Shown here piece after piece: positions 19,031 through 42,528 of a stretch of DNA of 43,305 nucleotides. The position numbers and the translations under genes were made by a program. Below the pieces are notes generated by a model that saw only the letters and a program-made list of their open reading frames with translations, made no database searches and was not told where the DNA came from. Origin of the DNA: Chloroflexota bacterium (GTDB taxonomy: Bacteria > Chloroflexota > UBA4733); the NCBI GenBank assembly GCA_023489405.1, contig JAMDCW010000131.1:1-43305 (forward strand). The letters are read 5' to 3'. The first letter of the stretch is position 1, and each line of letters opens with the position of its first letter.

Positions 19031-19965
19031 GGCAGTCCTGAAGGCCGTAGACACATGGCAGCTACTGCCATCCGTAGTCGGACTTTCCATTGCGCGGTAG
19101 TCAGGTGTCGCCGCATGCCCTGTTTCCACCAGAAAACTGCCTGGTAGAGCAAGCCGATGCGGGTGATGAATTCAAGGGTGACACGTTTTGAGCGCGGTAG
19201 CCACTTAGAGTAGAGTTTAAAGCGGCTACGTTGTAGTTCCAAGAACGTACGCTGCGTGGCGAGCTGTGAAGATCGTCCCCCGTAATGGATCACCTGAGCG
19301 GTAGGCGTGTACCACACTTCCCAGCCTAGGCGTCGAGCCCGTACGCACCAATCCTGCTCTTCACAGTACATCAAATAGCGCTCATCCAAGAGCCCAATAG
19401 CATCAAGAGCCTCTCGCCTGATCATTAGGCAGGCACCTATCACGGCATCTACAGGTCTTTCTAGCTCGTATGCTTCGCGAGCGTAGCGGCCCGAATGGGG
19501 AGTATCCGGATAGCGGAGGTCTCGGAGAAAATACTCCCAGGCAATGGAAGTGATCGACGGGTCTGCAAATGTTGAAAACTGAAGTGTCCCGTCACTATTC
19601 AGCAACTTCGGACCAGCGATGCCCGCTTCAGGATGGCGACTCAACGCTGCTATAAGGGCATCAAAAGAACCGGGGAGGGGTACGGTGTCGGGATTCAGCA
19701 AGACGATAAACTCGCTACGACATTTCTGCAATGCCCAATTATTTGCCCGCACAAAACCTATATTCTCGGTAAATTGGTGTAGATTAACCCAAGGGGCCTC
19801 TTGAGACACGCGAATAACCGTGTTATCCGCTGAAGCACTATCTACAACGAAGCATTCAAACTTTCGCGAGGTTGCTTTTGGTAAGGCATCAAGACACTGT
19901 GTTATCAGCGATTCGCTATTCCATGTTACTATCACTATTGAGAGAACTGGCTTATCCATACTCAT
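19024..19965 (-). CDS. Glycosyltransferase family 2 (WbbL-like; paralogue of 17244..18206)
   Basis: LSIVIVTWNSESLITQCLDAL...VVDSASADNT...NIGFVRANNWA...VLLNPDTV. Overlaps the stop of the upstream fusion gene by 4 nt. Confidence 0.82.
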   Translation of the reverse strand: MSMDKPVLSIVIVTWNSESLITQCLDALPKATSRKFECFVVDSASADNTVIRVSQEAPWVNLHQFTENIGFVRANNWALQKCRSEFIVLLNPDTVPLPGSFDALIAALSRHPEAGIAGPKLLNSDGTLQFSTFADPSITSIAWEYFLRDLRYPDTPHSGRYAREAYELERPVDAVIGACLMIRREALDAIGLLDERYLMYCEEQDWCVRARRLGWEVWYTPTAQVIHYGGRSSQLATQRTFLELQRSRFKLYSKWLPRSKRVTLEFITRIGLLYQAVFWWKQGMRRHLTTAQWKVRLRMAVAAMCLRPSGLPW

Positions 19966-22900
19966 AGGAGCGCCTCAATCGTACGGTAACTACGGTTCAG
20001 TAGATAGATTAGTTTTCCACACTCGTCATCCGTAAGTCCTCCAGAAGAAATAAACAGCAGAATGTAAACGATAACGCTAGCGGGTAGGGCAAATACTAAG
20101 GAATGACTACTTGTTAACACACCGGTAGTAATGCTACCAATGCTAGAAACAAGGGAAGGGATAGAAATACGCCTCCAAGGCAAGTATACACATATATGTC
20201 GTACACCATAGAGGAAAGGAATAAGTAGGACTACCTCTGATAAGACCGTTATTATTGCGGCAGCTTCTGAATGGAGCAAAGGAATGAATATTATATTGGC
20301 AATAATGTTAAAGGAAACTCCAATAATAAAAGAACTGGTAATATAACGCTCTTTCCCTAGAGAGATAAGTACATATTGAGTCAATCCATTTATATAGCTA
20401 AATATCAGGAAGAATATCAGAATTTGCAAGAGAAATGCTGAATATTCGAAACCAGGGTAAAATACTCGAATAATAGGGTAGGAAAAGACAATAAATATCG
20501 ATATCAAAAATAGCGCCGAAGCAGTCAATATCCGCATCAACCGACCGTAGAGGTATGTAAAATCGCTCAATGAGCTGGTGGCATAGCGCGACAGTAAAGG
20601 AAACGAAGCGCCCACTAGATATGATGAAATAAACCCACATCCATCAATAAACTTATAAGCAATGCTGTAATAACCAATCCCTGCTGCATTACCCCACAGA
20701 AAAGTTAGTAATACAATATCGATACGAAAGAATATGAGATTGAGGAGGTTATTCACCATAAATGTAAAAGATCCGATACTCATGTTCACAGTGTCAGGTA
20801 TATCAATAGCAAATATAAGAGACAGTTTAGCTCTATATAGCATAATGCTGAGTAGTATGGCAGAAAAAATATTGACCATAAAAGATGCCAATGCAAGACC
20901 GACGATATTCCAGCCTTTTATTAGGAAAAATGCACCAATGAGCACTCGTAGTAAATTGCTCGATACTTCGATGAATGCGGGAATCTCGAAATGCTCTAGA
21001 GCTTTTAGCATACTGCTCGCGGCAGCACTCACAGAACTCGGAAATAAGCCTATAACGAGAAGCCAGAGCGCTGTGGCAGTCATGACATCATAACGACCAG
21101 AGCGTACTGCTAAAGCCGTCAGAAGCCAAGTCACCGGGAGGGCAATCAGGGCTAGCATGAAGCGTGCGCCCAGGCTATTCCAGAAATAGCGCCGTGCTTG
21201 AGAGTGGTCACGAGCAACAGCACGCAGCACATAGGTGCTTAGACCAAAATCTTGAATGGTAGAGAGAATTCCAAAGATCGCCACGGCCTCTGCGTAGCGT
21301 CCGACACCGGCTGGCCCAATGAGCAGTGCGGTGAAAACGCTGAACCCGAAGTCCAATACCTTGTTAGCGAGGTTGCTAGCCATTGGGCTCATAGCATTCT
21401 TAGCAAGTCTTCTGCCGGGAAAGTCGCTCAAATGCCAGAACTCCTCCAGTGAGGGCCACATTTTCCAGACAAAGAGGAGAAGGAGAGCAACAAAGCTAAT
21501 GATACTGAGCATAAGTCCCAACCGAAAAGATGCCGGCTGATAGCGAAACTCCACGATAAAATGCCCAGCGGGCAGCACTACCCCTCGGAAGGCCTCATCT
21601 GCCGGCACGATCTTCGCTTGGGTCCAAGGGCCAGCTTCATGTACCGGGCGATAGCGGACGGTCCAGCCAGGATAGTACGTGTCTGACAAGACGAGCGCGG
21701 ATGTTCCAGTGGTTTGAACGTCCAGTGTTATCCGCGACGACTGATACGATTGTATTTCTGCTGTGCCGGTTCCATCGAGGTGGATTGGCGCATCATCCTC
21801 CAAGACAGCCTCATGGGCTGGATCGAACGCCGGCTGACTGAGTAGGGCCAGCGCTTGCGATTGGCGATGCACTGTAACCGCCCGGCCAACGACAAAGGCA
21901 CGGGGTAATGTCGAGGTCATACGATAGACATTAATTGGCCCAGAAAGCACTTGATCGAGATTAGGGGCCTGGAGCGCATCTACCGATAGTACATACTTTA
22001 CGTTGAGTAATCGCAGCAAGGGTGATTGTAGCGTAGCTTTATCAACAAGAGTTTTTGTCGTTTGACTATAAAGATTTAAGTTTGCCATCTGGGGTTCGAT
22101 GAGATTGAGGAGCCGCGCATATCTTCGAAGAACGATGGTGTCATATCCTCGAATATCTTGGAGACCAAAGATCATCGCCGTATTTGGCGCAAGAATATCC
22201 TGAGGACCGAATGATGCAATCCGAAATGGGCTGTTGGCCTTCTCTTGACTGATCAAATAACGAATACTTGGAGGTATTTCTTGGTTGTTTTGTATGGTAG
22301 CGTACGCACCACCAACAATAGAGAGAAGACTGGGATTTACTTGTGAGTTAAAGCCCCCAGTAGCAGCAACTAAATCAGCGTAAGTCAGCCCAATAAGGGC
22401 AACAGCAGCAGAAAAACGTAAATAGCGGTGATTTGCTAAAAATACTAGAATACACAATAAAATAGCACAGCACGTTAAGAAGAATACAGCAACCACGATA
22501 TGAGGCCAAACTAAAGAAAACCATTCACGTCCGCCATGAAGCTGATTTGCCAGAAACCACTGATTCTTTGGCTTTGATGCGTCACGCTGTAAAATTTCAG
22601 TAAGGAAAGTTGCAATTCTTGATCGATATATAAAACTGATGACAACACCTAGAATAGTACCTACTGCACATAGCCCAACTAGTATTACGTGAAAATTAGT
22701 CAAGTGACGAACTATGTGATCGAATCGGTGCTGGAATATACTATTCAGACCAATCCCTGATAAAACAGCAATACTAAATGAGTACACATAAACCCAACGG
22801 AATGCGGTGTGAATCTGTGTAAAGCCGGGAACAAGTCGAAATAATATTGCATACAAAGGACTGCCAAATGCTAATAACAAACTTATGACTACTAGTACAG

Positions 22901-24146
22901 CAAAAAAGTATGAGATCCGATTGCGCCGTATCATCACACCGAGCGGAGCAAGAGCAAGAGGGATAATACCAACATAGCTTGCAGCTTCCACATAGTTTTT
23001 GATACCCCAAAATGCGGTATCCGGTGGCCAGGAGGATCGACCATCGACACCTAAACCGGGCTGGCGAATGTGGAACGAGAACAGATCAACATAATGGTGA
23101 ACCGTAGGATTACCAAAAAAATCCGGAATGATAAATGTCACCAGTTGTCGAAGAGGAAGCGCCCATCCTCGAACATCTGCCAGAGTGACTGAATTGGCAC
23201 GGAAGTTCCGGCTAATCTCCTCAGCAAAAGGCAAAAGCTGCACAGCACTCAGACCGACTCCCAAAATGCCCATCGTCAGCAGCCAGGCAGCAGTAGAAGT
23301 CACTTGTCTCCACGATAAGCGCTGGAGAACTATGCGAAGGAGATGCCAGAGGCAGTAAACGCTCGTAGTGGAGAGCACGTAGAAGGTGATCTCAAGATGC
23401 CCCGCGAGAACCTCCAACCCAATGGCGAGAGCTCCAAGCACAACTCCACTGATCACCAATACAGGTCGGTGTTGTTCTCTGGCAGGTTCTCTCACGCCGA
23501 GGCCACGCATAGTGAGTTCGACACATGCCAGGATGGCTGGTAGCCAGACCATTGCTCCGATCATCTGTGGCCATAAGACACTCGTAAGGAGACTGGAGCA
23601 CAAGCTGAACACGACTCCTGTCAGAACCGCACCCAGACGACCTTCACCGACGCTTCTCAAGTACAAGTAGGCAAATACAGCCGCCAATCCTAACTGAGAG
23701 ACGGTGTAGAAGCTATAGGCGTACGCAATGGGCATAATGACAAACCATAAAACAAAGGGATAGAGCACCTGGTACTGCCCAGCAGCCAGGAACGGTGCGC
23801 CGCCCAGCATGTCAGGGTTCCACAATGGGAGATGGCCGCGTAGCAATTCCTGAACGAGAAATCGCTTCCAACCAAGATTCTGAATAATCATGTCGCTAAT
23901 AAGTGCGTTATGAGGAGTCTGAAAGCCTGGCAGTATCGCTTGGGCTTGAGCTGCCCAAGGTTGCATCAGCAATAGATTATCGATCGGGAGCAGGATACGT
24001 TGACCAAGAAGCGATGGGAAAAAGACCAGGGCAGGTCCCAACAGGAGCATTGCGCAGATGAAAAACTCAATTCTCCTGGCTGAGCGTGAAGCCGTAGATG
24101 GAGAAGCTGGATGAGCAGTTATGGAGTCAGCTAGGATTGCTGTCAC
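19962..24146 (-). CDS. Single-ORF fusion of an N-terminal YfhO-family GT-C membrane glycosyltransferase (about aa 1-885) and a C-terminal Wzx/MOP-type polysaccharide flippase (about aa 890-1394)
   Basis: The 1394-aa ORF is uninterrupted. The N-terminal part carries YfhO hallmarks (LRGHLPLWNPDMLGGAPFLAAGQYQVLYP). It ends with the typical YfhO C-terminus YYPGWTVRY...FRGVVLPAGHFIVEFRYQPASFRLGLMLSIISF plus a final TM. The C-terminal part starts like Wzx/polysaccharide-biosynthesis proteins (LAKNAMSPMASNLANKVLDFGFSVFTALLIGPAGVGRYAEAVAIFG), followed by about 12 TM segments. Confidence 0.75.
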   Translation of the reverse strand: MTAILADSITAHPASPSTASRSARRIEFFICAMLLLGPALVFFPSLLGQRILLPIDNLLLMQPWAAQAQAILPGFQTPHNALISDMIIQNLGWKRFLVQELLRGHLPLWNPDMLGGAPFLAAGQYQVLYPFVLWFVIMPIAYAYSFYTVSQLGLAAVFAYLYLRSVGEGRLGAVLTGVVFSLCSSLLTSVLWPQMIGAMVWLPAILACVELTMRGLGVREPAREQHRPVLVISGVVLGALAIGLEVLAGHLEITFYVLSTTSVYCLWHLLRIVLQRLSWRQVTSTAAWLLTMGILGVGLSAVQLLPFAEEISRNFRANSVTLADVRGWALPLRQLVTFIIPDFFGNPTVHHYVDLFSFHIRQPGLGVDGRSSWPPDTAFWGIKNYVEAASYVGIIPLALAPLGVMIRRNRISYFFAVLVVISLLLAFGSPLYAILFRLVPGFTQIHTAFRWVYVYSFSIAVLSGIGLNSIFQHRFDHIVRHLTNFHVILVGLCAVGTILGVVISFIYRSRIATFLTEILQRDASKPKNQWFLANQLHGGREWFSLVWPHIVVAVFFLTCCAILLCILVFLANHRYLRFSAAVALIGLTYADLVAATGGFNSQVNPSLLSIVGGAYATIQNNQEIPPSIRYLISQEKANSPFRIASFGPQDILAPNTAMIFGLQDIRGYDTIVLRRYARLLNLIEPQMANLNLYSQTTKTLVDKATLQSPLLRLLNVKYVLSVDALQAPNLDQVLSGPINVYRMTSTLPRAFVVGRAVTVHRQSQALALLSQPAFDPAHEAVLEDDAPIHLDGTGTAEIQSYQSSRITLDVQTTGTSALVLSDTYYPGWTVRYRPVHEAGPWTQAKIVPADEAFRGVVLPAGHFIVEFRYQPASFRLGLMLSIISFVALLLLFVWKMWPSLEEFWHLSDFPGRRLAKNAMSPMASNLANKVLDFGFSVFTALLIGPAGVGRYAEAVAIFGILSTIQDFGLSTYVLRAVARDHSQARRYFWNSLGARFMLALIALPVTWLLTALAVRSGRYDVMTATALWLLVIGLFPSSVSAAASSMLKALEHFEIPAFIEVSSNLLRVLIGAFFLIKGWNIVGLALASFMVNIFSAILLSIMLYRAKLSLIFAIDIPDTVNMSIGSFTFMVNNLLNLIFFRIDIVLLTFLWGNAAGIGYYSIAYKFIDGCGFISSYLVGASFPLLSRYATSSLSDFTYLYGRLMRILTASALFLISIFIVFSYPIIRVFYPGFEYSAFLLQILIFFLIFSYINGLTQYVLISLGKERYITSSFIIGVSFNIIANIIFIPLLHSEAAAIITVLSEVVLLIPFLYGVRHICVYLPWRRISIPSLVSSIGSITTGVLTSSHSLVFALPASVIVYILLFISSGGLTDDECGKLIYLLNRSYRTIEALL

Positions 24147-24312: not shown

Positions 24313-25491
24313 CTAGCCACTCCGGTAACGTTTGCGCAGCAAAGTCATCAGTCGCTCACGCTCATCGGCGTACGATTCTCTATCGGTTTTCCCTAAGCTA
24401 TACGCATCATCAAGCTCGGCTATGCGTGCAATGAGCGTATCTACGGAGTTTGGAGGGTTATCTATCTGCCTACGCGAACGCAGAAATACATAGAGGATAG
24501 GTGCTAAGACCGCGACGATGACAACGGTTATTTCAGCGATAGTCTGCACATGTCGCTCAATAAAGACCGTGACCCGTTGTAGCAGTGTAGCTTTCGGTAA
24601 GCCTGTCAAATGTACAGAGATAGTACCACCTGACGGCAGAGAGCCTCTTGAGAGAACATCAAACTGTTTGCCGCCAAGTGCGACAGTACCATCAGGATGG
24701 AAACCGAGAGAGCTAACCTTCACAGAAGAGGGAGAATAAAGTACTTGAGCAGCCGAGATAGGATAGACAAAATGAAGAGGAATATCCATATCAGAACCAT
24801 TGTAAGGGATGCGAAAAGAGTAAGAAACAGTCGTATTACCAGGAAGAACGGGAGCGGTACTGGCAATCCCTCCGCTAGCTCGAATAACTTGATTAACACC
24901 TAATCCCGATTGCAGACCAACGTCATCGACCCCTAATGGAAGAGGAAGCAGGATGAGATTCTTAGATTGTCCACTAGAGGATTGTGTGGGAATAAACGTC
25001 TCTTCAGTAGGATTATGAAACCTCAATAGCAACAAGAAACTTACATGCTGAGTATCCTGCCGAAATCCCCCAAAAACGAGGGTTACTGTACTTAACAAAA
25101 GATGCGGTTGTTTCTTAGTCGCATTGTAGACAGTAATTTTGCTATGGACAGGTGAATTATTAGTGGGGAGACGGATAGGGGCACTATTATAATCAATACC
25201 TTGATATATAACCTGGGAAAACACTACAATAGAACCACTAACCGGCACTCCTACAAATGAAAATCTCCCTTGATTATCCGTTTGAACTGTAGCTAATACC
25301 TTCTCGGCGGTCCCTTGAACTACCATGAGATGCACAGAAATCCGAGGAACACGAGAGCCAAGAGTACCATTGACTACTATTCCATCAACGCCGACGGTCA
25401 GCTCAGATGCTACCGCTAGACGATATGACAATACCAGGCCAACGATCAGCATGATTGTCATCGAGAAATAGAAGAATAGATAACGTCTCAC
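24313..25491 (-). CDS. Bitopic/anchored envelope protein: N-terminal TM, carboxypeptidase-regulatory-like Ig domain, second beta-rich domain, C-terminal TM, and a short cytoplasmic CcmI-like helix
   Basis: The N-terminal anchor is MTIMLIVGLVLSY. A CarboxypepD_reg-like segment reads VHLMVVQGTAEKVLATVQTDNQGRFSFVGVPVSG. The C-terminal TM is IAEITVVIVAVLAPILYVFL, followed by IARIAELDDAYSLGKTDRESYADERERLMTLL. The gene is 13 nt downstream of ccmD on the same strand. Confidence 0.6.
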   Translation of the reverse strand: MRRYLFFYFSMTIMLIVGLVLSYRLAVASELTVGVDGIVVNGTLGSRVPRISVHLMVVQGTAEKVLATVQTDNQGRFSFVGVPVSGSIVVFSQVIYQGIDYNSAPIRLPTNNSPVHSKITVYNATKKQPHLLLSTVTLVFGGFRQDTQHVSFLLLLRFHNPTEETFIPTQSSSGQSKNLILLPLPLGVDDVGLQSGLGVNQVIRASGGIASTAPVLPGNTTVSYSFRIPYNGSDMDIPLHFVYPISAAQVLYSPSSVKVSSLGFHPDGTVALGGKQFDVLSRGSLPSGGTISVHLTGLPKATLLQRVTVFIERHVQTIAEITVVIVAVLAPILYVFLRSRRQIDNPPNSVDTLIARIAELDDAYSLGKTDRESYADERERLMTLLRKRYRSG

Positions 25492-25504: not shown

Positions 25505-25705
25505 TTATAGCTGGATGTTCTGTGGCTGACTAGCCGATCCTGCTGGATCTCCAGGAGACTGACTTTCAACTTCCTGTAATTTCCGGTGTAGTTCCGCAGC
25601 TTCCTGCCTAACTGACCGTATGACTCCATTAATCCAATAGAGATAGATAAAGAGAGCGATCCACAAGACTAAATAGGCGGCAACTAAATACCATAGGTTT
25701 GTCAT
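25505..25705 (-). CDS. ccmD: Heme exporter protein D (CcmD-like small single-TM protein)
   Basis: 66 aa with N-terminus MTNLWYLVAAYLVLWIALFIYLYWI followed by a charged tail. It sits immediately after ccmC, which is the usual position. Confidence 0.7.
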   Translation of the reverse strand: MTNLWYLVAAYLVLWIALFIYLYWINGVIRSVRQEAAELHRKLQEVESQSPGDPAGSASQPQNIQL

Positions 25706-25711
25706 GGTTAC

Positions 25712-26473
25712 TCATTCTAGTTCTTCAGCCCGCTGTCGCAGTTCTCTCAAGTCATCGCGTACCGTCTCCAAACGGAGACGCTGAACAAACAACGCTACAC
25801 CAAGAATGGTAAACGCAAACACCGACACCAGCAGCGCTATAAGCATCGATGGAGCCAAATGGCCGGGAGCCAACACATCGGCTTGAGGATGAAGCGTTCG
25901 CCACCAGGATACTGAAAACTGTACGATTGGCACATCGATGAACGTAATGATGCCGACGATGGCGGCATAGCGCGGAGCACGTCCTTCATCGGCGGTGTAA
26001 GCACGCAAGAGCAGGTAAGCGAGATCCATAAACCAAAGGACGAGTGTCGTTGTCAAACGGGCATCCCATGTCCACCATACTCCCCAGACAGGACGCCCCC
26101 AGATCGACCCCGTAATTAATACGATAGTGGTAAACAATAGACCTATCTCAGCAGCAATGCGAGCGACACGATCCCATACTGGCCGGCCACGCCATAGATA
26201 GAGGACGCTCGCTACGAAAAGTACAAAGAAAGCAGCATACGCATTCCACGCCGTACCGACATGGACATAGAAGATGCGGAATACATTCCCTTCAACCGCA
26301 TCCTTCGGTGTCACCAAGAGCCCCAAGATCAGGGTCAACAAAATTCCTACGGCGCTCATCAGCGTGAGCAGGCCCCCCACGATGTATGCTAATGAACTGG
26401 AATGAGCACTTTTTAAATGTACTGCAGACTGCACGCTCACTGGGCCTCCTTTACAACCTCCACTGATGATCAT
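25712..26473 (-). CDS. ccmC: Heme exporter protein C
   Basis: WWD domain WGRPVWGVWWTWDARLTTTLVLW, the flanking conserved His (YVHVGTAW) and a 6-TM layout. There is an ATGA start/stop overlap with ccmB. Confidence 0.9.
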   Translation of the reverse strand: MIISGGCKGGPVSVQSAVHLKSAHSSSLAYIVGGLLTLMSAVGILLTLILGLLVTPKDAVEGNVFRIFYVHVGTAWNAYAAFFVLFVASVLYLWRGRPVWDRVARIAAEIGLLFTTIVLITGSIWGRPVWGVWWTWDARLTTTLVLWFMDLAYLLLRAYTADEGRAPRYAAIVGIITFIDVPIVQFSVSWWRTLHPQADVLAPGHLAPSMLIALLVSVFAFTILGVALFVQRLRLETVRDDLRELRQRAEELE

Positions 26474-27222
26474 CTATCAAAAACGTTGTCCGCTACAGCT
26501 AATGTAATAAAGAAAAACAGCCCGGTATACGCACATGCGAGTTGTAACCATGGGTGGCTGAGTGCGGGTGGCTGAGCCACGAGTGATTGGCTCACCTCTT
26601 CAACGGAAGCGATGATTAAAGGCACGCTGATAGGCAACAACAACAGAGGTAATAGGAGCTCTCGGGCTCGGGCTTCAGCGCTCAGCGCACTAAAAAGAGT
26701 ACCGAGCGTACTAAATCCCAACGTTCCAACGAAGAAGCTCGCGAGAATGAGAGGCTTCCAGAGAGGTGCGTTAAAGAGCAAAGCACCAATCGGTAAAACT
26801 ATCAACTCCATTGCACACATGAGGATGACATTGATCCCCACCTTTGCGAAGAGCAAGGCCGAACGGTTCACGGGACTCACAAGCAGGCCTTCAAGTTCAC
26901 CACGATCACCAGCAACAGGGAAAGCTCGCTGAAAACCGAGCATGCCACCGAAGATGATGGCAGTCCACAGCACGCCGCTCAAGACATCGCCTGGAGGATT
27001 GGGATGGAGATCAAAAGCAAAACTAAAGATGAGAACGATGAGGAGAGAGAACACCACCATGGTTACCGGTGTTTCACGCCCTCGCCAAGCACTACGGATC
27101 TCAGCTTGCAAAAGTGCCCACCACTGTTGCAGAGCAGCGCCAGCGATCATCTGGGTGGAGAGTGCGGGAGGAGAATCAACGTGCGAGGTTGCCACGAGAG
27201 CTTCTCTCATATGCTGATTCAA
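26470..27222 (-). CDS. ccmB: Heme exporter protein B (ABC permease)
   Basis: A 6-TM protein positioned between ccmA and ccmC with a CcmB-like sequence (FSFAFD...GVLWTAIIFGGMLGFQRAF...ELEGLLVSP). The start is uncertain: 27222, 27210 or 27150. Confidence 0.8.
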   Translation of the reverse strand: MNQHMREALVATSHVDSPPALSTQMIAGAALQQWWALLQAEIRSAWRGRETPVTMVVFSLLIVLIFSFAFDLHPNPPGDVLSGVLWTAIIFGGMLGFQRAFPVAGDRGELEGLLVSPVNRSALLFAKVGINVILMCAMELIVLPIGALLFNAPLWKPLILASFFVGTLGFSTLGTLFSALSAEARARELLLPLLLLPISVPLIIASVEEVSQSLVAQPPALSHPWLQLACAYTGLFFFITLAVADNVFDR

Positions 27223-27925
27223 TCATTTCTACTGAGACTGCTTGGCTCGGGTTATCGAAAACCAGCCTTCCTCCAACAATGACGAGTACGCGATCCGACA
27301 ACCGCTGTGCTTGTTCGATCCGATGCGAAGTAAACAGGACCGTCGCCCTACTCTTCTCTACTATATCTACAAGAACTTGCTCGAATCGACCGAGGGCTAA
27401 CGGGTCAAGTCCGGATTCAGGTTCGTCCAGCAGCAACAATCGAGGCTGGCCTAGCAATGCCCGTGCTAAAGCGAGTCTTTGTACCATGCCACGCGAAAAA
27501 AAGGCAACGCGACGATGCGCAGCATCAATAAGACCAACAGACTGGAGCAGACGCTCAGTATCCTCCTTGGACCAGGGAAGAGCGTGAAGAGCAGCGCTCA
27601 ACGTGAGATTCTCAGCAGCAGTAAGCTGGCTGTAGAATAAAGAGTGGTGAGCGACATACCCAATCAGTTGACGGACTTCGTGCCCATTACTACCTATGGG
27701 CCATCCAAAAACACGAACAACACCGGAATCGGGAGACAGCAAAGTGGCGAGAATACGCAGGATGGTGGTCTTTCCAGCACCATTTGGACCAAGAAGCGCT
27801 ATCCGCTCTCCGACCTCTACCGAGACAGAGAAATTCCTGACTACAAGCTGGGCGCCATAGCGTTTCATCAGCCGCTGCACATCCACAGCGAGTGGGGATG
27901 GAGCTATAGTTATTGATGTATCCAC
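27176..27925 (-). CDS. ccmA: Heme ABC exporter ATP-binding protein
   Basis: Walker A GPNGAGKTT, signature-like FSRGMVQRLALARAL and Walker B LLLLDEPESGLD. Its operon position is immediately upstream of ccmB. Confidence 0.88.
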   Translation of the reverse strand: MDTSITIAPSPLAVDVQRLMKRYGAQLVVRNFSVSVEVGERIALLGPNGAGKTTILRILATLLSPDSGVVRVFGWPIGSNGHEVRQLIGYVAHHSLFYSQLTAAENLTLSAALHALPWSKEDTERLLQSVGLIDAAHRRVAFFSRGMVQRLALARALLGQPRLLLLDEPESGLDPLALGRFEQVLVDIVEKSRATVLFTSHRIEQAQRLSDRVLVIVGGRLVFDNPSQAVSVEMIESAYERSSRGNLAR

Positions 27926-29085
27926 GTCTGCCCTGCATCCCTACTGAAATATAAATTGCCTTGATTATCGAGGGCAATTACCGTGTCGGCTGAATGTTGA
28001 TTAACTGCTACTGCCCGAAGGGGAACTGACAAAGGAGCCGCGAACCAGCTTCCCCCTCCATCTCTGGAGGTATACAAGCCATCATTGGTAGCTGCCAACA
28101 ACAGTCCGTGGAACACCTGTCCCTGAGGCCCGATGGATTGATCGGCCGTTGCCGCATAGACGACTGCATGCACTGGGGTTTGGGGTAACAGCCCGTTGAC
28201 TAAGCCGTTAGCAAGCGCCCACGTTTTCCCTTCGTCAGTGCTCACTTCGACGCCTCGCGAGGTAGCTGCTACAAGCAAAGGGTGAACACCTGGAACGATA
28301 GCGAGCGATGCAATACCATTTGGAAGCGTGCCAAGATGAAGCGGTTGCCATGTCTGACCGCCGTCCTGAGACTGGACGAGCGCACCATCGCTAAGAATTG
28401 CCCCCACCCCTTTCCCAGAGGGGAGTGGGAAGAGGGATTCAAGCCGCCGAAATTCAGAAGGTAACTGATGTTGGATCCACGTTTTCCCGCCATTGTTGCT
28501 AACAGCAAGCAGTTGTCTAGAGGCTATGAGCAGACGATCGGGCTGAGAAGGATCAAAGGCCAGTGCAGCAGCACCAGGAATAGGGCTCTTGGTCCACGGG
28601 CTAGCAGAAGTGCTACTGGAGTGTGCAGTTGCAAAGAGCAACCCTGCTGAAACGATCACCAAAATGGCGGCGAACGTACTGCCAATGACCAGCCGGCGAG
28701 GAGCATGGGCCCTCACCATTCGAGGTCCTCTTTGGGGCATAGGAGAGCCGTGAGAAGACTTTACAGGTACATGGCCGCGCCGGGCAGCAATTGCACGTTC
28801 AAGCGCTTCTTCTCTATCTCGCTCTTGCTGTTCAATTAAGCGAAGTAATGCCAGGGCCTGATGAGCATAACGCTCACGCAGAGGAAAATAATCCTCATCA
28901 TTCAGTTTCCCTAAGTCACGTTCTAAGTCTAGCTCTCGTAGCGCCAGGAGCGCAGCGTCATGTCGATCATAGAGCTGATCAGTTCCGGGATCCTCTGGCC
29001 ATGGGACACTCGCCCGACTGAAAATGGGATGGAGGACAAATGCTCCTAGAGTGACCGTAAGTACGACAAACGCTACGAGTATCAT
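27910..29085 (-). CDS. CcmI-like N-terminal module (TM1, cytoplasmic helical loop, TM2) fused to a periplasmic/extracytoplasmic Asp-box (BNR, Ycf48-like) beta-propeller
   Basis: TM1 is MILVAFVVLTVTLGAFVLHPIF. The loop reads LLALRELDLERDLGKLNDEDYFPLRERYAHQALALLRLIEQQERD. TM2 is LVIGSTFAAILVIVSAGLLFA. Five Asp-box-like repeats follow: SNNGGKTW, SQDGGQTW, STDEGKTW, SRDGGGSW and SRDAGQTW. The gene has an ATGA overlap with the ccmH stop and overlaps the ccmA start. Confidence 0.7.
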   Translation of the reverse strand: MILVAFVVLTVTLGAFVLHPIFSRASVPWPEDPGTDQLYDRHDAALLALRELDLERDLGKLNDEDYFPLRERYAHQALALLRLIEQQERDREEALERAIAARRGHVPVKSSHGSPMPQRGPRMVRAHAPRRLVIGSTFAAILVIVSAGLLFATAHSSSTSASPWTKSPIPGAAALAFDPSQPDRLLIASRQLLAVSNNGGKTWIQHQLPSEFRRLESLFPLPSGKGVGAILSDGALVQSQDGGQTWQPLHLGTLPNGIASLAIVPGVHPLLVAATSRGVEVSTDEGKTWALANGLVNGLLPQTPVHAVVYAATADQSIGPQGQVFHGLLLAATNDGLYTSRDGGGSWFAAPLSVPLRAVAVNQHSADTVIALDNQGNLYFSRDAGQTWIHQ

Positions 29086-29672
29086 CGGTGAGCTCCACCG
29101 TCGTGCGCCGGCATGTGGGTAGCCCCCGAACTATCCGAGCTATTGATTTTTTCTGAATCTGAAGCGGTTGAGCGTCCTGTCGGGATAGGGGATTGCAGGC
29201 GCACCTCAGTCATCAGCGCATCAGGATCATTCGGGTCATCTGAAGCGGCATGAACCCATCGAACGGCAGCAAAGCTGATGCCGAAGAGGCTCACAGCTAA
29301 AACAACGAGAGGAACAAGCCATATACCCAAGGTAATGCCACGTTTAGGAGGGTTAAGAAGAATACCAGGACCATAGCGCGCAACAAAGTACTGGCGTATC
29401 TGGGTATCAGTCCATCCCTCCTTAACCTGCTGCTCAATGATGTGTCGCATTTCAATCGCCAGCACTGATGGTGAGTCTGCGACTGTTTCACCCTGGCAAA
29501 TAGGGCAAGCAAGCTGCTCTTCAATAAGCCGAGCTCGTTGTGCTGGCGTGGGGGCAATAGATGACGAATGGTCAGATAGCAAAGATGCTAGAGCGATGGC
29601 AGTCAAAACGAGCAAGACAGCACTGAGCCACAATGCGTTACGCTTCACTAGCCACACTTCCCTGTTCGACAC
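29082..29672 (-). CDS. ccmH: Cytochrome c-type biogenesis protein CcmH (NrfF family thiol-disulfide component)
   Basis: LACPICQGETVADSPSVLAIEMRHIIEQQVKEGWTDTQIRQYFVARYGPGILLNPP carries the CxxC motif and is followed by a TM. An alternative start at GTG 29648 would give an 11-nt overlap with ccmF. Confidence 0.88.
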   Translation of the reverse strand: MSNREVWLVKRNALWLSAVLLVLTAIALASLLSDHSSSIAPTPAQRARLIEEQLACPICQGETVADSPSVLAIEMRHIIEQQVKEGWTDTQIRQYFVARYGPGILLNPPKRGITLGIWLVPLVVLAVSLFGISFAAVRWVHAASDDPNDPDALMTEVRLQSPIPTGRSTASDSEKINSSDSSGATHMPAHDGGAHR

Positions 29673-31635
29673 GAGGAGTAAACAAACGCGGTTGCCGGCG
29701 AGCGGGCCAACCGAGTATCAGGACGCCAATCCCGAAGAGCACTGCGCCGATCCAGAGAAGCGAGACTTGTGGATTAATGAACACGCGCAGGTCAATGGCT
29801 CCTTGTGGGGTAATGCTTGTTACCAAGACATAGACATCGTCCAGCCACGGGAATGTAGTCATAATGCTTATCCTCGATACGGGTTGAGAGTTCCAGTGAG
29901 CATATACACGCTTTTCCGGTTGAACGTATCCTAGTAATGAGTTATTGTGGCGAACAGCTATCGCGGCAGCCTCAGCCACATAGTCGGTTCCTCGCGTACT
30001 ACTCACGCCAACGTACTGCAGCGTGTACGATCCAACTCGGAGACTCTGTCCAGGAGTCAACTCTCGCTCGGCTGATTGCTGAAAAGTTGAACCAATCACA
30101 CCAACAGCAAGGATGAGAATCGCGAAATGCACGACATAGCTCCCCAAGCGACGACGTTCTTTTAGCCAAACTCCTGTCAGCGCTACGCGGATACCATCCC
30201 CACTCTGTCGACGTGCCTGGGCACCCCGGCTGATTTCTATGGCAGTTGCTATAGCGGTGAGCGCACAGGCACCGTAAGCCAGTGGGGCGAGTCCACGGGG
30301 CATACCCATCACCAAGAGCACTACGGTAACAGCACCTCCGGCGAGGAGCGGCAGAGTAAATGCCTGCCAAAAGCGCTGGCCTGAAGTACGACGCCAAGCG
30401 AGTAGGGGACCTACCCCCATCAGCAGTAGGATGATACAGAAGATCGGCGTATCAACTTGAACATAGTACGAAGCTCCGACTCCAATTTTCGCTCCTTTGA
30501 GCGCCTCGGTGACGATAGGGAAAATGGTTCCCCAAAAGATTGCGACGATCGATGAGGCAAGGAGCATATTATTGAGCAGAAAAGCACTCTCTCGGGCAGC
30601 AAGGCTATCGAACCGCCCGCGCGAGCGCAGCAACGGGAGCCGCCAGGCGATGAGGGCGAGGACGCCTACAAGCACAATACCTAGAAAGGTAAAGAACAGT
30701 GGTCCTACGGATGACTCTGCAAACGCATGAACAGAAGTAATCACACCGCTACCGACGATGAACATACCGAACACGGCGAGGGCAAAACCAGCAGTGGCGA
30801 GGACGATATTCCATACCCGGAGCATTCCGCGCCGCTCCTGAACCATCAGGGAGTGGAGCAATGCTGTCGCGACGAGCCAGGGCAAGAGAGCGACATTTTC
30901 AACAGGATCCCACCCCCAGTAACCACCCCAGCCAAGTACGTGGTACGCCCACCAAGCCCCAGCGATAAGACCACATCCCTGAATCGTCCACGCTACCAAG
31001 GTCCAGCGCCGCAAAGCCTTCAGCCAAAGACTGCCCATTTCACCATGAATCAATCCTGCTACGGCAAAGGCGAAAGGCACCGTGAACGCCATGTAACCTG
31101 TGAGAAGGAGCGGCGGATGGAAGCTCATCGCTTCATCTTGGAGCAAGGGATTTAACCCTTGACCATCGCTAGGAGTTGTTGATAGGACGTTGAAGGGATT
31201 TGCACTGGTGAGGAGAACGACGAGGAAAAAGGATTCAACGAGGCTGAGCACGGCGAGCACAAGCCCTAATGTCGCTGATTCTCGCCGGCGCTGGACCCAG
31301 AATACCGCCGCTGTGATCCAAGAAAGCATGACCGTCCTGAATAAAAGGGAACCGGCTTGTCCTCCCCAAAAAGCGCTCACAATGGCCCGCGTTGACATGG
31401 AGCGGTTAGAAACTTGAGCAACGAAAGCTACCTGGAATTGGTGCGTCAGTAAAAGTCCCCAGAGTACCAACGCACAGAAAGTGAGGAGGGCGGTCGCTGA
31501 GAGAGCAGCGCGCACTGCGCTAAGGCGGAGCTCAGATACGCCGCGGATGTGTGCAATTCCACCACCAACTGCACTAAATAGAGAGAAGGCGAGCGCAACA
31601 GCAAGAGCAAGCGACGCAACGGATGGTATGCTCAT
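29638..31635 (-). CDS. ccmF: Cytochrome c heme lyase subunit CcmF
   Basis: 665-aa polytopic protein with the WWD motif WGGYWGWDPVENVALLPWL. Confidence 0.93.
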   Translation of the reverse strand: MSIPSVASLALAVALAFSLFSAVGGGIAHIRGVSELRLSAVRAALSATALLTFCALVLWGLLLTHQFQVAFVAQVSNRSMSTRAIVSAFWGGQAGSLLFRTVMLSWITAAVFWVQRRRESATLGLVLAVLSLVESFFLVVLLTSANPFNVLSTTPSDGQGLNPLLQDEAMSFHPPLLLTGYMAFTVPFAFAVAGLIHGEMGSLWLKALRRWTLVAWTIQGCGLIAGAWWAYHVLGWGGYWGWDPVENVALLPWLVATALLHSLMVQERRGMLRVWNIVLATAGFALAVFGMFIVGSGVITSVHAFAESSVGPLFFTFLGIVLVGVLALIAWRLPLLRSRGRFDSLAARESAFLLNNMLLASSIVAIFWGTIFPIVTEALKGAKIGVGASYYVQVDTPIFCIILLLMGVGPLLAWRRTSGQRFWQAFTLPLLAGGAVTVVLLVMGMPRGLAPLAYGACALTAIATAIEISRGAQARRQSGDGIRVALTGVWLKERRRLGSYVVHFAILILAVGVIGSTFQQSAERELTPGQSLRVGSYTLQYVGVSSTRGTDYVAEAAAIAVRHNNSLLGYVQPEKRVYAHWNSQPVSRISIMTTFPWLDDVYVLVTSITPQGAIDLRVFINPQVSLLWIGAVLFGIGVLILGWPARRQPRLFTPRVEQGSVASEA

Positions 31636-31638
31636 GTC

Positions 31639-32154
31639 CTAGGGATTACCCCCACTTCCCTTACCTGCTTGTGCAGTGGCTTGGGCATCTGCAGCGGCAA
31701 AGCGAGCATCGTGCTTCACGATAATTTGGGAAGCTTTGAATACACCATCCGACTGTAAAGCCCCTTCGACAATGGCATCTTGATAGTGCCCATCGCGGGC
31801 ATAGCCAAACATGTCCGGCACAACACCGGTATAGACTACGGGTAATCGGCTGCCATTCTTATCAGTCATTTCGAATCGCAATGTCTGCGTTTTGGCGTTC
31901 CAGTGAATCGATCCGTCTGCAGCACGTCCACCGATGCGAACAATCTGGCCATATGCTGCAGGTCCTTTAGCGCGGAGCTGACCTACCGTCAAATAATATT
32001 CAGCACTCGCTTTCGTAGCTGTAAAGACGAGATACAACAGCGTGAGGGCTGCTGCCACACCGGCAGCAACCACCTTCCAGGATAATGGCTGCCGGCTAGG
32101 ATGCTTCTTCTGTGCCAGGCCGTACGGTTCTACAGGGAGATTACGCACTCCCAT
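31639..32154 (-). CDS. ccmE: Heme chaperone CcmE
   Basis: An N-terminal TM, an OB-fold body (RIGGRAADGSIHW...LRFEMTD...LPVVYTGVVPDMF...IVEGAL) and the heme-binding His in IIVKHDARF. The stop is 3 nt before the ccmF start. Confidence 0.85.
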   Translation of the reverse strand: MGVRNLPVEPYGLAQKKHPSRQPLSWKVVAAGVAAALTLLYLVFTATKASAEYYLTVGQLRAKGPAAYGQIVRIGGRAADGSIHWNAKTQTLRFEMTDKNGSRLPVVYTGVVPDMFGYARDGHYQDAIVEGALQSDGVFKASQIIVKHDARFAAADAQATAQAGKGSGGNP

Positions 32155-32233: not shown

Positions 32234-32701
32234 CTAGGAAGTCGCTCCGTAGCTGACATCAAAGATTACTTGCAAGATCACCGCGAGTGCTGAAACCGCC
32301 AGGCCCAGTACGAGTACAACGTACGGCGCTGAAAGCCAGTGTGGTAGGTGTTTTTGCCGGTGCGTTCGCCGCGCCAGACCAGAAGCAATAACCATCATAA
32401 TGACAGAGAGCAACACTTTCAGCGCGAGGATTACGGCATAGATACGATGAAGGTGAGGCTGTGATAGCCGATCAAAGGTCAGTATGGCACCTGTAAATAT
32501 TAGTACGATGCTACTCACCTGGCTCACCTCACGCATCTGATCGTTCACCAAAGAGAAGAGTAGGCGCTGTTGATCACTGTGCACTGCGGACTTCAGTGCC
32601 GGCTGCAATGCACCGATAAAAAAGATCATGCCTCCCACCCACGTAATAGCAGCGAGTAAGTGGAAAATTCTGATGATCACCAGGAGGAAAAGGCCAACCA
32701 C
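32234..32701 (-). CDS. Small 4-TM membrane protein, CopD-domain-like, Cys-free and His-containing
   Basis: IFHLLAAITWVGGMIFFIGALQPAL resembles the CopD/HemJ-type first helix. The 155-aa protein lies between ccmG and ccmE. Confidence 0.45.
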   Translation of the reverse strand: MVGLFLLVIIRIFHLLAAITWVGGMIFFIGALQPALKSAVHSDQQRLLFSLVNDQMREVSQVSSIVLIFTGAILTFDRLSQPHLHRIYAVILALKVLLSVIMMVIASGLARRTHRQKHLPHWLSAPYVVLVLGLAVSALAVILQVIFDVSYGATS

Positions 32702-32711
32702 CTGCCTTACC

Positions 32712-33290
32712 TTAGCTCCCTATCAACTGCTCAAGAAGCCTTGTCAGCTCCTTTTCGTCTACCGGACCAATCCAGTGATCTACGACCTGACCTTCTTTGT
32801 TCAAAAGAAATGTCTCAGGTACACCAGTAATCCCGTAGTCAATCGCAATATGGCCTGATGGATCTTCTGCTACCGGATAGGCGACGTTATGGTCCTTGAG
32901 AAATGTGACAGCGTTAGCTCGTGTATCCCATACATCAATGCCGAGAAAAACTACGCGGGCGTGGAAAGCCTGCCATACTTTTTGTAGAGCAGGTACTTCT
33001 GTCTGGCAAGGAATACACCAGGAAGCCCAAAAGTTGATCAAGATGGGCTTTCCGCGCTCATTGTAAAGGTTAAAGGTCTGGCCGGAAAATAACTGGAGAT
33101 GGAAAGATCGAGCCTTATAAGGAGGTTCGACCATAATCAGTTGTCCGGTTCCAAAAACCTGGGCCGCACCGCGCCCTCCAGAGAGAAGACCGCCGCTCGT
33201 AGCGAGGCTCTGATGAGCCAATGCCCAACCGCCGAGGCCTAAAAAGATCAAAATTACGAGCAGCGCTCCACCTAGCAGAGCAATTCGCAT
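32712..33290 (-). CDS. ccmG: Membrane-anchored thioredoxin-like thiol:disulfide oxidoreductase (CcmG/DsbE/ResA/TlpA family)
   Basis: An N-terminal TM, then ILINFWASWCIPCQTEVPAL (WCxxC) and GVPETFLLNKEG (cis-Pro loop). It is the first gene of the ccm array. Confidence 0.85.
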   Translation of the reverse strand: MRIALLGGALLVILIFLGLGGWALAHQSLATSGGLLSGGRGAAQVFGTGQLIMVEPPYKARSFHLQLFSGQTFNLYNERGKPILINFWASWCIPCQTEVPALQKVWQAFHARVVFLGIDVWDTRANAVTFLKDHNVAYPVAEDPSGHIAIDYGITGVPETFLLNKEGQVVDHWIGPVDEKELTRLLEQLIGS

Positions 33291-42455: not shown

Positions 42456-42528
42456 AGGAGTGTAGCTCAGTTGGTAGAGCAGCGGTCTCCAAAACCGCCG
42501 GTCGGGGGTTCGAGTCCCTCCACTCCTG
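42456..42528 (+). tRNA. trnW: tRNA-Trp (anticodon CCA), 73 nt, 3' CCA not encoded
   Basis: Hand-folded cloverleaf. Acceptor stem AGGAGTG/CACTCCT, D arm GCTC-AGTTGGTA-GAGC, anticodon arm GCGGT-CTCCAAA-ACCGC, variable loop CGGTC, T arm GGGGG-TTCGAGT-CCCTC, discriminator G. Confidence 0.93.

Follow-up and report, generated by a model that had tools for sequence, protein, structure and literature searches.

Among the subunits of System I, the cytochrome c maturation (Ccm) machinery, CcmI is the least understood, with respect both to the job of its membrane/cytoplasmic segment and to the presentation of the apocytochrome to CcmF. A ccm operon of a Chloroflexota bacterium (assembly GCA_023489405.1, contig JAMDCW010000131.1, analyzed over 43,305 nucleotides (nt), hereafter the window) raises the question of whether a CcmI-type subunit may be built on something other than tetratricopeptide repeats (TPR). 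Between ccmH and ccmA, this operon encodes a 391 amino acid (aa) protein, annotated as hypothetical in the databases and here called X, in which a CcmI-like membrane module is followed by an extracytoplasmic BNR beta-propeller. An initial annotation, made from the sequence alone, had suggested that this architecture is undescribed, and full-text literature searches indeed found none like it: no paper pairs CcmI with a zinc ribbon (an element found in the relatives of X described below) or a beta-propeller with ccmF and ccmH, no relevant pairing of Ycf48 with cytochrome c maturation was found, and reviews present CcmI as a TPR protein only (PMC3884852, PMC3601427). X thus belongs to a known kind of subunit, that of CcmI, in a form not described before.

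Gene X and its place in the ccm operon

Gene X lies at 27910..29085, stop codon included (this and all coordinates below refer to the minus strand unless stated otherwise), and is coupled on both sides, as was initially noticed. Its start codon, an ATG preceded by a Shine-Dalgarno-like GGTGGAG, shares the four nucleotides ATGA with the ccmH stop, as read from the sequence, and its final 16 nt are shared with ccmA, which starts with GTG. The remainder of the machinery, ccmA to ccmH, is present in the window, to the exception of a TPR-type CcmI: no TPR domain was found in the scanned open reading frames (ORFs) of at least 150 aa, and the syntenic genes corresponding to the unscanned ORFs that adjoin the operon, in two related loci (L001 and L002), carry no TPR family. 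X itself has no match to a TPR family at E <= 1 in either Pfam or NCBIfam.

The protein begins with a transmembrane helix, TM1 (residues 1-22, 29020..29085; hydropathy 2.46, modelled helix 2-22), which has an invariant Pro20 and aligns to the first helix of both canonical CcmI and TIGR03142, the NCBIfam model of the CcmI N-terminal domain. It continues with a cytoplasmic helical hairpin (residues 33-104, 28774..28989; modelled helices 33-57 and 63-104) that carries the motifs ALRELDxERxxGKLxDxDYFPLRERYA and LERAIAARR, a variable basic linker (residues 105-131, 28693..28773) of low conservation and with a predicted local distance difference test score (pLDDT) <50, and a second transmembrane helix, TM2 (residues 132-156, 28618..28692; hydropathy 2.44 over residues 132-152, modelled helix 135-156). 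In an alignment of X with its homologues (A1, 11 sequences), the best-conserved stretch is the cytoplasmic D36-R103, ALRELDxERxxGKLxDxDYFPLRERYAxQA...LERAIAARR, and the LxELDxxxDLGKxxxEDYxxxRER segment that was initially pointed out is therefore real, and conservation across the protein is highest there. The cytoplasmic region between the two helices, of about 100 aa, contains 19 K/R and 19 D/E. Because an Arg-rich stretch precedes TM2, the loop is predicted to be cytoplasmic and the C-terminal domain to lie outside. The zinc ribbon that relatives of X carry in the same loop, a cytoplasmic element, fits this topology. Hydropathy, charge and modelled helices thus agree on two transmembrane helices around a cytoplasmic loop with a large C-terminal domain outside, which is the arrangement of CcmI and was initially recognized as that of its CcmI-1 part. 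Two other readings of the loop motif were considered and rejected. As to SHOCT, Pfam gives no such match in X, nor in the operon protein Y described below, and the only one, a weak match, is at the C-terminus of a module relative (P0152); an anti-sigma domain would be cytoplasmic, whereas X begins with a transmembrane helix.

A word-indexed search of 5.8 billion proteins retrieved ten other full-length homologues of X (391-395 aa, 41-83% identity by alignment), and all those with a source name come from Chloroflexota metagenome-assembled genomes (MAGs). Weaker matches are to double-propeller 'PSII assembly factor-like' proteins and cover the C-terminal half only. A scan of contigs with the X family returned only four species representatives, again all Chloroflexota MAGs. 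The X clade is small and restricted to uncultured Chloroflexota. Within it, the position of the gene is fixed: the order ccmF-ccmH-X-ccmA is found in all eight other homologue-bearing loci (L001, L002, L004, L009 and L012-L015), so that the initial proposal passed this check, on which it could have failed, and the full string G-CopD-like-E-F-H-X-A-B-C-D-Y is kept wherever the contig is long enough. One of these eight loci encodes a relative of only 33% identity (P0280) and has flanks that are non-syntenic with those of the window. Across the clade, identities are lower for X (41-49%) and Y (32-42%) than for CcmF (52-74%) and CcmC (72-81%), and such faster evolution is what one expects of accessory subunits.

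Relationship of the N-terminal module to CcmI

A relationship of the N-terminal module to CcmI was the other point on which the initial annotation could have been refuted, and it held. TIGR03142 is the top NCBIfam match to the isolated module of X, with a score (14.6 bits, E = 0.029) that is under the model cutoff of 29.3. Against full-length X it scores 11.1 bits and ranks fourth of four NCBIfam matches, after the propeller families, being the sole match outside the propeller; the module is colinear with model positions 2-89 of 118. E values for X or its module range from 0.03 to 0.4, and other members of the X family score 7.6-12.9 bits. Among the relatives of the module, the zinc-ribbon protein P0085 passes the cutoff with 34.2 bits and has the Joint Genome Institute (JGI) name CcmI; P0141 and P0139 reach 28.1 and 23 bits.

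We also compared profiles directly, using as canonical CcmI the TPR-bearing genes in the annotated ccm operons of Pseudomonas aeruginosa, Cupriavidus necator and Methylophaga replicons. With a joint profile of the X family and its module relatives (A3), hhalign gave a probability of 94% to canonical CcmI N-termini (E = 1.4e-7, score 45.9, 76 columns), and with the X family alone 86% (E = 5.3e-6, score 39.5, 52 columns). Controls in which TM1 was retained and the loop columns were shuffled (30 runs) scored 27-33, and reversed sequences 18-20, which indicates that the loop motif adds real signal beyond that of a generic transmembrane helix. On this sequence evidence, the first ~105 residues of X are homologous to the N-terminal module of CcmI. 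Besides the position of its gene directly after ccmH, X shares with CcmI/CycH an outward N-terminus leading into TM1, a cytoplasmic helical loop with L-x-E-L-D-x-D-x-x-x-G-x-L, TM2, and a large outside domain. It differs in this outside domain, a five-bladed BNR propeller where CcmI/CycH has TPR and an alpha/beta domain, in a longer loop ending in LERAIAARR, which canonical CcmI lacks, and in an operon arranged as E-F-H-X-A-B-C-D, where the canonical order is A-B-C-D-E-F-G-H-I.

The canonical CcmI proteins of Xanthomonas sacchari (L019 7820-8851) and Burkholderia sp. RPE67 (L021 7685-8749) have no cytoplasmic loop, TM2 following almost directly after TM1, which makes the loop a variable element even among TPR-type CcmI.

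A widespread family of CcmI-like modules

A profile of X-family N-termini (A2) retrieves proteins of ~145-190 aa (E down to 4.6e-9) with TM1, the ELD/ELDFDxxxGK...DY helix and a helix ending in LERAIAARR, followed by a single or double zinc ribbon. Searching 1.84 billion cluster representatives with A3 at full HMMER sensitivity gave 8,508 proteins at E <= 1e-3, of which 2,364 have E <= 1e-10, X itself being matched at 5.2e-34; the family, counted at 50% identity, comprises ~8,500 clusters. Among the 147 best matches, TIGR03142 is the commonest NCBIfam family, present at E <= 1e-3 in 45 and passing its cutoff in one. About 90 of these 147 proteins carry zinc-ribbon Pfam domains, four a BNR propeller, and none a TPR.

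Wherever the surroundings of a module relative could be read, they are those of a ccm operon, with ccmF, ccmH or ccmG ahead of the gene and ccmA downstream. The gene order is ccmE-F-H-G-[module + zinc ribbon]-cytochrome c-ccmA-B-C-D in L005/L006 (P0063, with near-identical relatives annotated Anaerolineales), ccmE-F-[module + zinc ribbon]-ccmA-B-C-D in L007, where ccmH is absent, and ccmF-[module + zinc ribbon]-ccmA in L026. In L025, ccmH and ccmG are followed by a 52-aa ORF and by P0152, where the module is joined to a double zinc ribbon, a transmembrane helix and a long extension. On plasmid p1 of Cytobacillus firmus (L018), ccmE-F-H precede a 116-aa protein that consists of the module only, a 310-aa Y-like protein and ccmA-B-C, and in L011 a fusion of the module with a Y homologue (P0244) directly follows ccmH.

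The closest relatives of the X module are short CcmI-N/zinc-ribbon proteins such as P0063, P0085 and P0139, annotated as zinc ribbon domain-containing or hypothetical, with which X has the LERAIAARR end in common. X in fact shows the whole signature of these short forms: TM1 plus hairpin, ELD-x-D/E-x-x-x-GK-x-x-x-x-DY and LE-x-x-IA-x-x-R. Their genes stand directly before ccmA in L007 and L026, and one cytochrome c gene away in L005. The short forms measure ~120-200 aa and have one transmembrane helix, one or two cytoplasmic zinc ribbons and nothing outside, whereas X has TM2 and the propeller but no ribbon, as neither Cys pairs nor a C-terminal cytoplasmic zinc ribbon (CxxC...CxxC) occur in it.

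P0280 (L009/L010 8001-9407) combines the features of both. This 468-aa protein, encoded in a locus arranged as ccmE-F-H-[P0280]-ccmA-B, has the module, a zinc ribbon at the position of the variable linker of X, TM2 and a slightly longer BNR propeller. The presence of both propeller and zinc ribbon in P0280 suggests that the propeller was added to the short form. On sequence grounds, the short zinc-ribbon protein is naturally read as the widespread form of the module family; TM2 and a propeller would have been acquired in a Chloroflexota lineage, P0280 being an intermediate, and the zinc ribbon would later have been lost in X. The initial annotation had seen a propeller replacing the TPR. It was right that the outside domain is a propeller and that TPR are missing, but a direct swap looks unlikely, the nearest relatives being short zinc-ribbon proteins that have nothing outside the membrane. 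In position and topology the propeller corresponds to the TPR segment, as an analogue that does not seem to have replaced it directly in evolution.

The loci also differ in their CcmE. In the X clade (window, L001, L002, L004, L009), CcmE keeps the haem-binding His and has Phe for the conserved Tyr (KHDA[RN]F vs. the proteobacterial KHDENY), whereas the short-module loci checked (L005, L007, and C. firmus L018, whose protein has no zinc ribbon) encode the Cys-type CcmE of System I*, with KC[PG][ST][RK]Y.

Other matches and loci were less informative. P0145, a cluster representative of 6,790 aa in which 18 stretches match the loop part of the module profile (positions 49-98), is probably a repetitive coiled-coil protein, and the loop motif may here be scoring on unrelated helical repeats. 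Plasmid loci of Iamia and Deinococcus are CcmF-only metal-resistance islands, and a Pseudonocardia plasmid has an ordinary TPR protein after ccmH.

The extracytoplasmic propeller

From Pfam families and a domain model, the extracytoplasmic domain of X (residues 165-391, 27913..28593) is confidently predicted to be a beta-propeller of five four-stranded blades. The five Asp-boxes initially reported are all present, at residues 196-203 (SNNGGKTW, 28477..28500), 239-246 (SQDGGQTW, 28348..28371), 282-289 (STDEGKTW, 28219..28242), 340-347 (SRDGGGSW, 28045..28068) and 381-388 (SRDAGQTW, 27922..27945); they are 41-58 residues apart, one per blade, as is typical of BNR propellers. Among Pfam families, X matches BNR (PF02012; E = 2.9e-11, 42 bits, cutoff 27), Sortilin-Vps10 (3.6e-09, above the gathering threshold) and PSII_BNR (5.5e-07, 29.6 bits, marginally over the cutoff of 27).

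The AlphaFold model of full-length X has a mean pLDDT of 73.6 and is confident in the helices and the propeller only (~90 in the latter), and a model of the domain alone (residues 160-391, 15 sequences) reaches a pLDDT of 91 and a predicted TM-score (pTM) of 0.88. It displays five groups of four strands, each with one Asp-box, and a short N-terminal strand could complete the closure of the ring. In Foldseek searches of the PDB, the top matches of the propeller are Ycf48 chains (E ~1e-8, 17-21% identity), several of them solved with a bound D1 peptide, followed by glycoside hydrolase family 74 (GH74) xyloglucanases, DAIP and WD40 proteins. TM-scores range overall from 0.26 to 0.5, with 0.4-0.5 for the best matches and 0.39-0.43 for the Ycf48 chains, to which the root-mean-square deviation (RMSD) is 7-9 Å; this global superposition is poor because all the Foldseek matches are seven-bladed. 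A sequence search of the PDB returned BNR proteins only, including sialidases and GH74 xyloglucanases, of which only the repeats are covered, and no match to the N-terminal module.

Can the propeller be assigned to a known family? Ycf48/HCF136 is the best fold match, in agreement with the PSII_BNR hit, and likewise has its propeller on the outside, where an unassembled polypeptide could be bound. However, it has seven blades where X has five, identity is ~20% with TM-scores of 0.4-0.5, the score for the Ycf48 equivalog NF010237 (33.3 bits) is under the cutoff of 326, and Ycf48, being a lipoprotein or a soluble lumenal protein, has neither a CcmI-like anchor nor a link to ccm. The initial label of a BNR/Ycf48-like propeller is therefore right as regards the BNR propeller class, and no further. 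The best NCBIfam model, NF045728 ('F510_1955 family glycosylhydrolase'), gives 95.7 bits in three stretches and does not reach its cutoff of 175. It describes small BNR lipoproteins of Bacillaceae that are similar to the domain in size (profile of 246 positions) but devoid of a CcmI-like module, and its label derives from similarity to GH74, the function of the family itself being unknown (PMC3948429). In GH74 xyloglucanases, two tandem seven-bladed propellers form the catalytic cleft, which the single ~227-aa propeller of X is unable to do. With the Ycf48 and F510_1955 cutoffs failed and a GH74 cleft impossible, X falls into the BNR class without matching any of its characterised families.

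In and after blade 3, alignments A1 and A7 contain invariant columns that make up a family-specific signature (28099..28212), ANG[FL]VNGLLP at residues 292-301 and YAxTADQxxGPxG...GLL at residues 310-329. Its first part is retained in the 33%-identical P0280 as ANGFVNGLLP, and the pLDDT dips locally at this place. Judging from its conservation, this signature is a candidate functional surface.

A second operon-encoded protein, Y

Gene Y (24313..25491) follows ccmD and encodes a protein of 392 aa with a signal anchor, a CarboxypepD_reg-like beta-sandwich ectodomain, a C-terminal transmembrane helix and a cytoplasmic tail. The tail, IAELDDAYSLGKTDRESYADERERL, resembles the loop of X, the likeness being in the motif ELDDAYSLGKTDRESYADERERL, and, X itself aside, no ORF of the window matches the module profile better, weak as the match is (E = 0.014-0.17). 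Y is kept after ccmD throughout the X clade. A homologue search returned only Y itself and one close relative, more distant links resting on pairwise BLASTP only: the Y part of the fusion protein P0244 matches the window Y at 3e-19, and the Y-type protein that adjoins the module-only gene in C. firmus (L018 9655-10587) has the same architecture and matches at E = 0.001. From these sequence relationships, Y is likely an unannotated Ccm component, and X and Y are probably partners; that their similar cytoplasmic helices pair with each other is speculative.

Possible function of X

In Rhodobacter, CcmI is part of the CcmFHI ligation complex and binds apocytochrome c and apo-CcmE, and the roles of its membrane/cytoplasmic part (CcmI-1) and of its periplasmic part (CcmI-2) are separable (PMC3884852, PMC7676999). 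X is very probably a dedicated CcmI-type subunit of the Ccm machinery. The best overall explanation, which we hold to be evenly poised between right and wrong, is that X is a CcmI-type accessory subunit of System I whose propeller serves as a binding platform on the outside. The membrane and cytoplasmic module would dock X onto the CcmF/CcmH haem-ligation complex, as Rhodobacter CcmI-1 does, a docking possibly shared with the cytoplasmic tail of Y, and the propeller would hold the unfolded apocytochrome c and/or CcmE near CcmF, in a role analogous to that of the CcmI TPR segment and of the Ycf48 propeller that holds the D1 peptide. Binding of apocytochrome or CcmE by the propeller is suggested by analogy, and we consider it possible, if somewhat short of an even chance. 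About as tentative is the combined proposal that in this Chloroflexota clade the propeller of X would be a docking chaperone of the haem-ligation complex for apocytochrome c and/or CcmE, and thereby an independent, non-TPR answer to the task of CcmI-2, and that the N-terminal module, which occurs mostly as zinc-ribbon forms in operons of the System I* type, would be the ancient core of CcmI, with a job in the cytoplasm or membrane that it performs with a Y-type protein, the tail of which has a similar helix motif.

Several points weigh against this explanation. X by itself remains below the TIGR03142 cutoff, and the generic TM1 helix supplies part of the profile-profile score. The likeness of the modelled X propeller to the Ycf48 fold is at class level only (TM-scores of 0.4-0.5, five vs. 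seven blades). The 43 kb analyzed are the part of the genome covered, and a TPR-type CcmI may be encoded elsewhere; moreover, CcmI is dispensable in some systems (PMC3601427). Finally, most module relatives are without any extracytoplasmic domain, which places the core function of the module in the cytoplasm or membrane, and not in the binding of apocytochrome on the outside, and leaves the role of the propeller without constraint from homology.

This last point leads to a different reading, in which the conserved function of the module is entirely on the cytoplasmic/membrane side, such as coupling or regulation of the haem-delivering CcmAB(CD) ATPase or stabilisation of CcmF, and the propeller is an addition confined to this lineage, with no part in binding cytochrome c precursors; its task might instead be to position the machinery in a monoderm-type envelope, to bind glycan, or to sense the outside. 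We regard this as unlikely, if worth serious attention. It would agree with the ~90 of the 147 best relatives in which only a zinc ribbon follows the module and with the lack of TPR in all 147, with the location of the gene immediately upstream of ccmA, often overlapping it, in most loci read (the exceptions being L005, with a cytochrome c gene between the two, and C. firmus, with the Y-like gene), and with the presence of carbohydrate-active GH74 enzymes among the relatives of the propeller. It would also agree with P0221, a cluster representative of 346 aa in which the module is joined to an ABC_tran (CcmA-like) domain. However, this is a single case, which may be either a real fusion hinting at a link between module and CcmA or an artefact of a frameshift or of gene calling. 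The one small propeller of X is not the two-propeller cleft of GH74, and a sizeable outside domain conserved to 33-45% identity with an invariant loop is left unexplained by a purely cytoplasmic function, while canonical CcmI unites both roles in one protein. For the CcmI-2 part of canonical CcmI, overproduction of CcmG or CcmFH has been reported to rescue the maturation defect.

Two further alternatives take the propeller as their starting point. X could be an assembly factor in the style of Ycf48 that passes newly made holocytochrome c, or some other subunit with a cofactor, to a specific respiratory complex, outside the haem-ligation step. The best fold and hidden Markov model similarities are indeed to Ycf48, a binder of a nascent subunit, and the non-canonical members of the operon (the CopD-like gene and Y) suggest additional assembly tasks, but the failed equivalog (33 bits vs. 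326), the five instead of seven blades, the specificity of the N-terminal module for ccm in every locus inspected, and the absence from the window of any CxxCH cytochrome or respiratory complex gene make this improbable. The idea that X is an ordinary BNR enzyme of the glycosidase or sialidase type, anchored in the membrane and placed in the ccm operon by accident, would be in line with the F510_1955 glycosylhydrolase model as best NCBIfam match and with the GH74 and sialidase matches in the PDB. Yet the score is under the cutoff of a family that has itself no established function, a single five-bladed domain has no means to form the GH74 active-site cleft, and an accident is hard to reconcile with the start/stop overlaps on both sides, with a fixed position in nine loci, and with an N-terminal module common to ccm-operon proteins of Chloroflexota MAGs, a Bacillota plasmid and unassigned metagenome contigs, so that we give this idea hardly any credence.

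System I* operons had been regarded as minimal; that of Desulfovibrio has been tested in an E. coli ccm deletion host, and its 'CcmI' reportedly enhances maturation. The N-terminal module is widely conserved and located in the ccm operon at every locus examined, including operons of the System I* type, and the outside domain of CcmI-type proteins appears exchangeable, being TPR, a BNR propeller or absent. Such natural domain-swap variants could help in telling apart the two functions of CcmI, and X and Y represent two unannotated operon-encoded Ccm candidates in non-proteobacterial lineages, namely Chloroflexota and, as regards genes for a Y-like protein and for the module on its own, Bacillota. 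Of perhaps greater consequence is the large family, as yet without a name, of short proteins in ccm operons that combine CcmI-N with a zinc ribbon.

The ccm operon and its surroundings

The operon reads, in order, ccmG, CopD-like, ccmE, F, H, X, ccmA, B, C, D and Y. The identification of the ccm genes, which agrees with the initial annotation, is based on Pfam/NCBIfam for ccmG (32712-33290), ccmE (31639-32154) and ccmH (29082-29672; Pfam CcmH, 6.3e-28), and on synteny with annotated relatives for the remaining ones: ccmF, the haem lyase (29638-31635; Cytochrom_C_asm and CcmF_C in the syntenic genes, tblastn to annotated CcmF), ccmA (27176-27925; ORF, with ABC_tran in the syntenic genes), ccmB (26470-27222), ccmC (25712-26473) and ccmD (25505-25705). 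The CopD-like gene (32234-32701), which codes for a polytopic membrane protein of 155 aa, matches the CopD C-terminal model NF033808 below its cutoff (E = 4.8e-7); it is not a standard ccm gene, and its position between ccmG and ccmE is kept in the clade.

Directly downstream of Y lies an ORF of 1,394 aa (19962-24146), whose syntenic equivalents combine YfhO and Polysacc_synt (flippase-like) and are followed in relatives by three family-2 glycosyltransferases, an envelope-glycan cluster thus adjoining the ccm operon in L001 and L002. The single Rfam match in the window is a tRNA gene at 42456-42528 on the plus strand.

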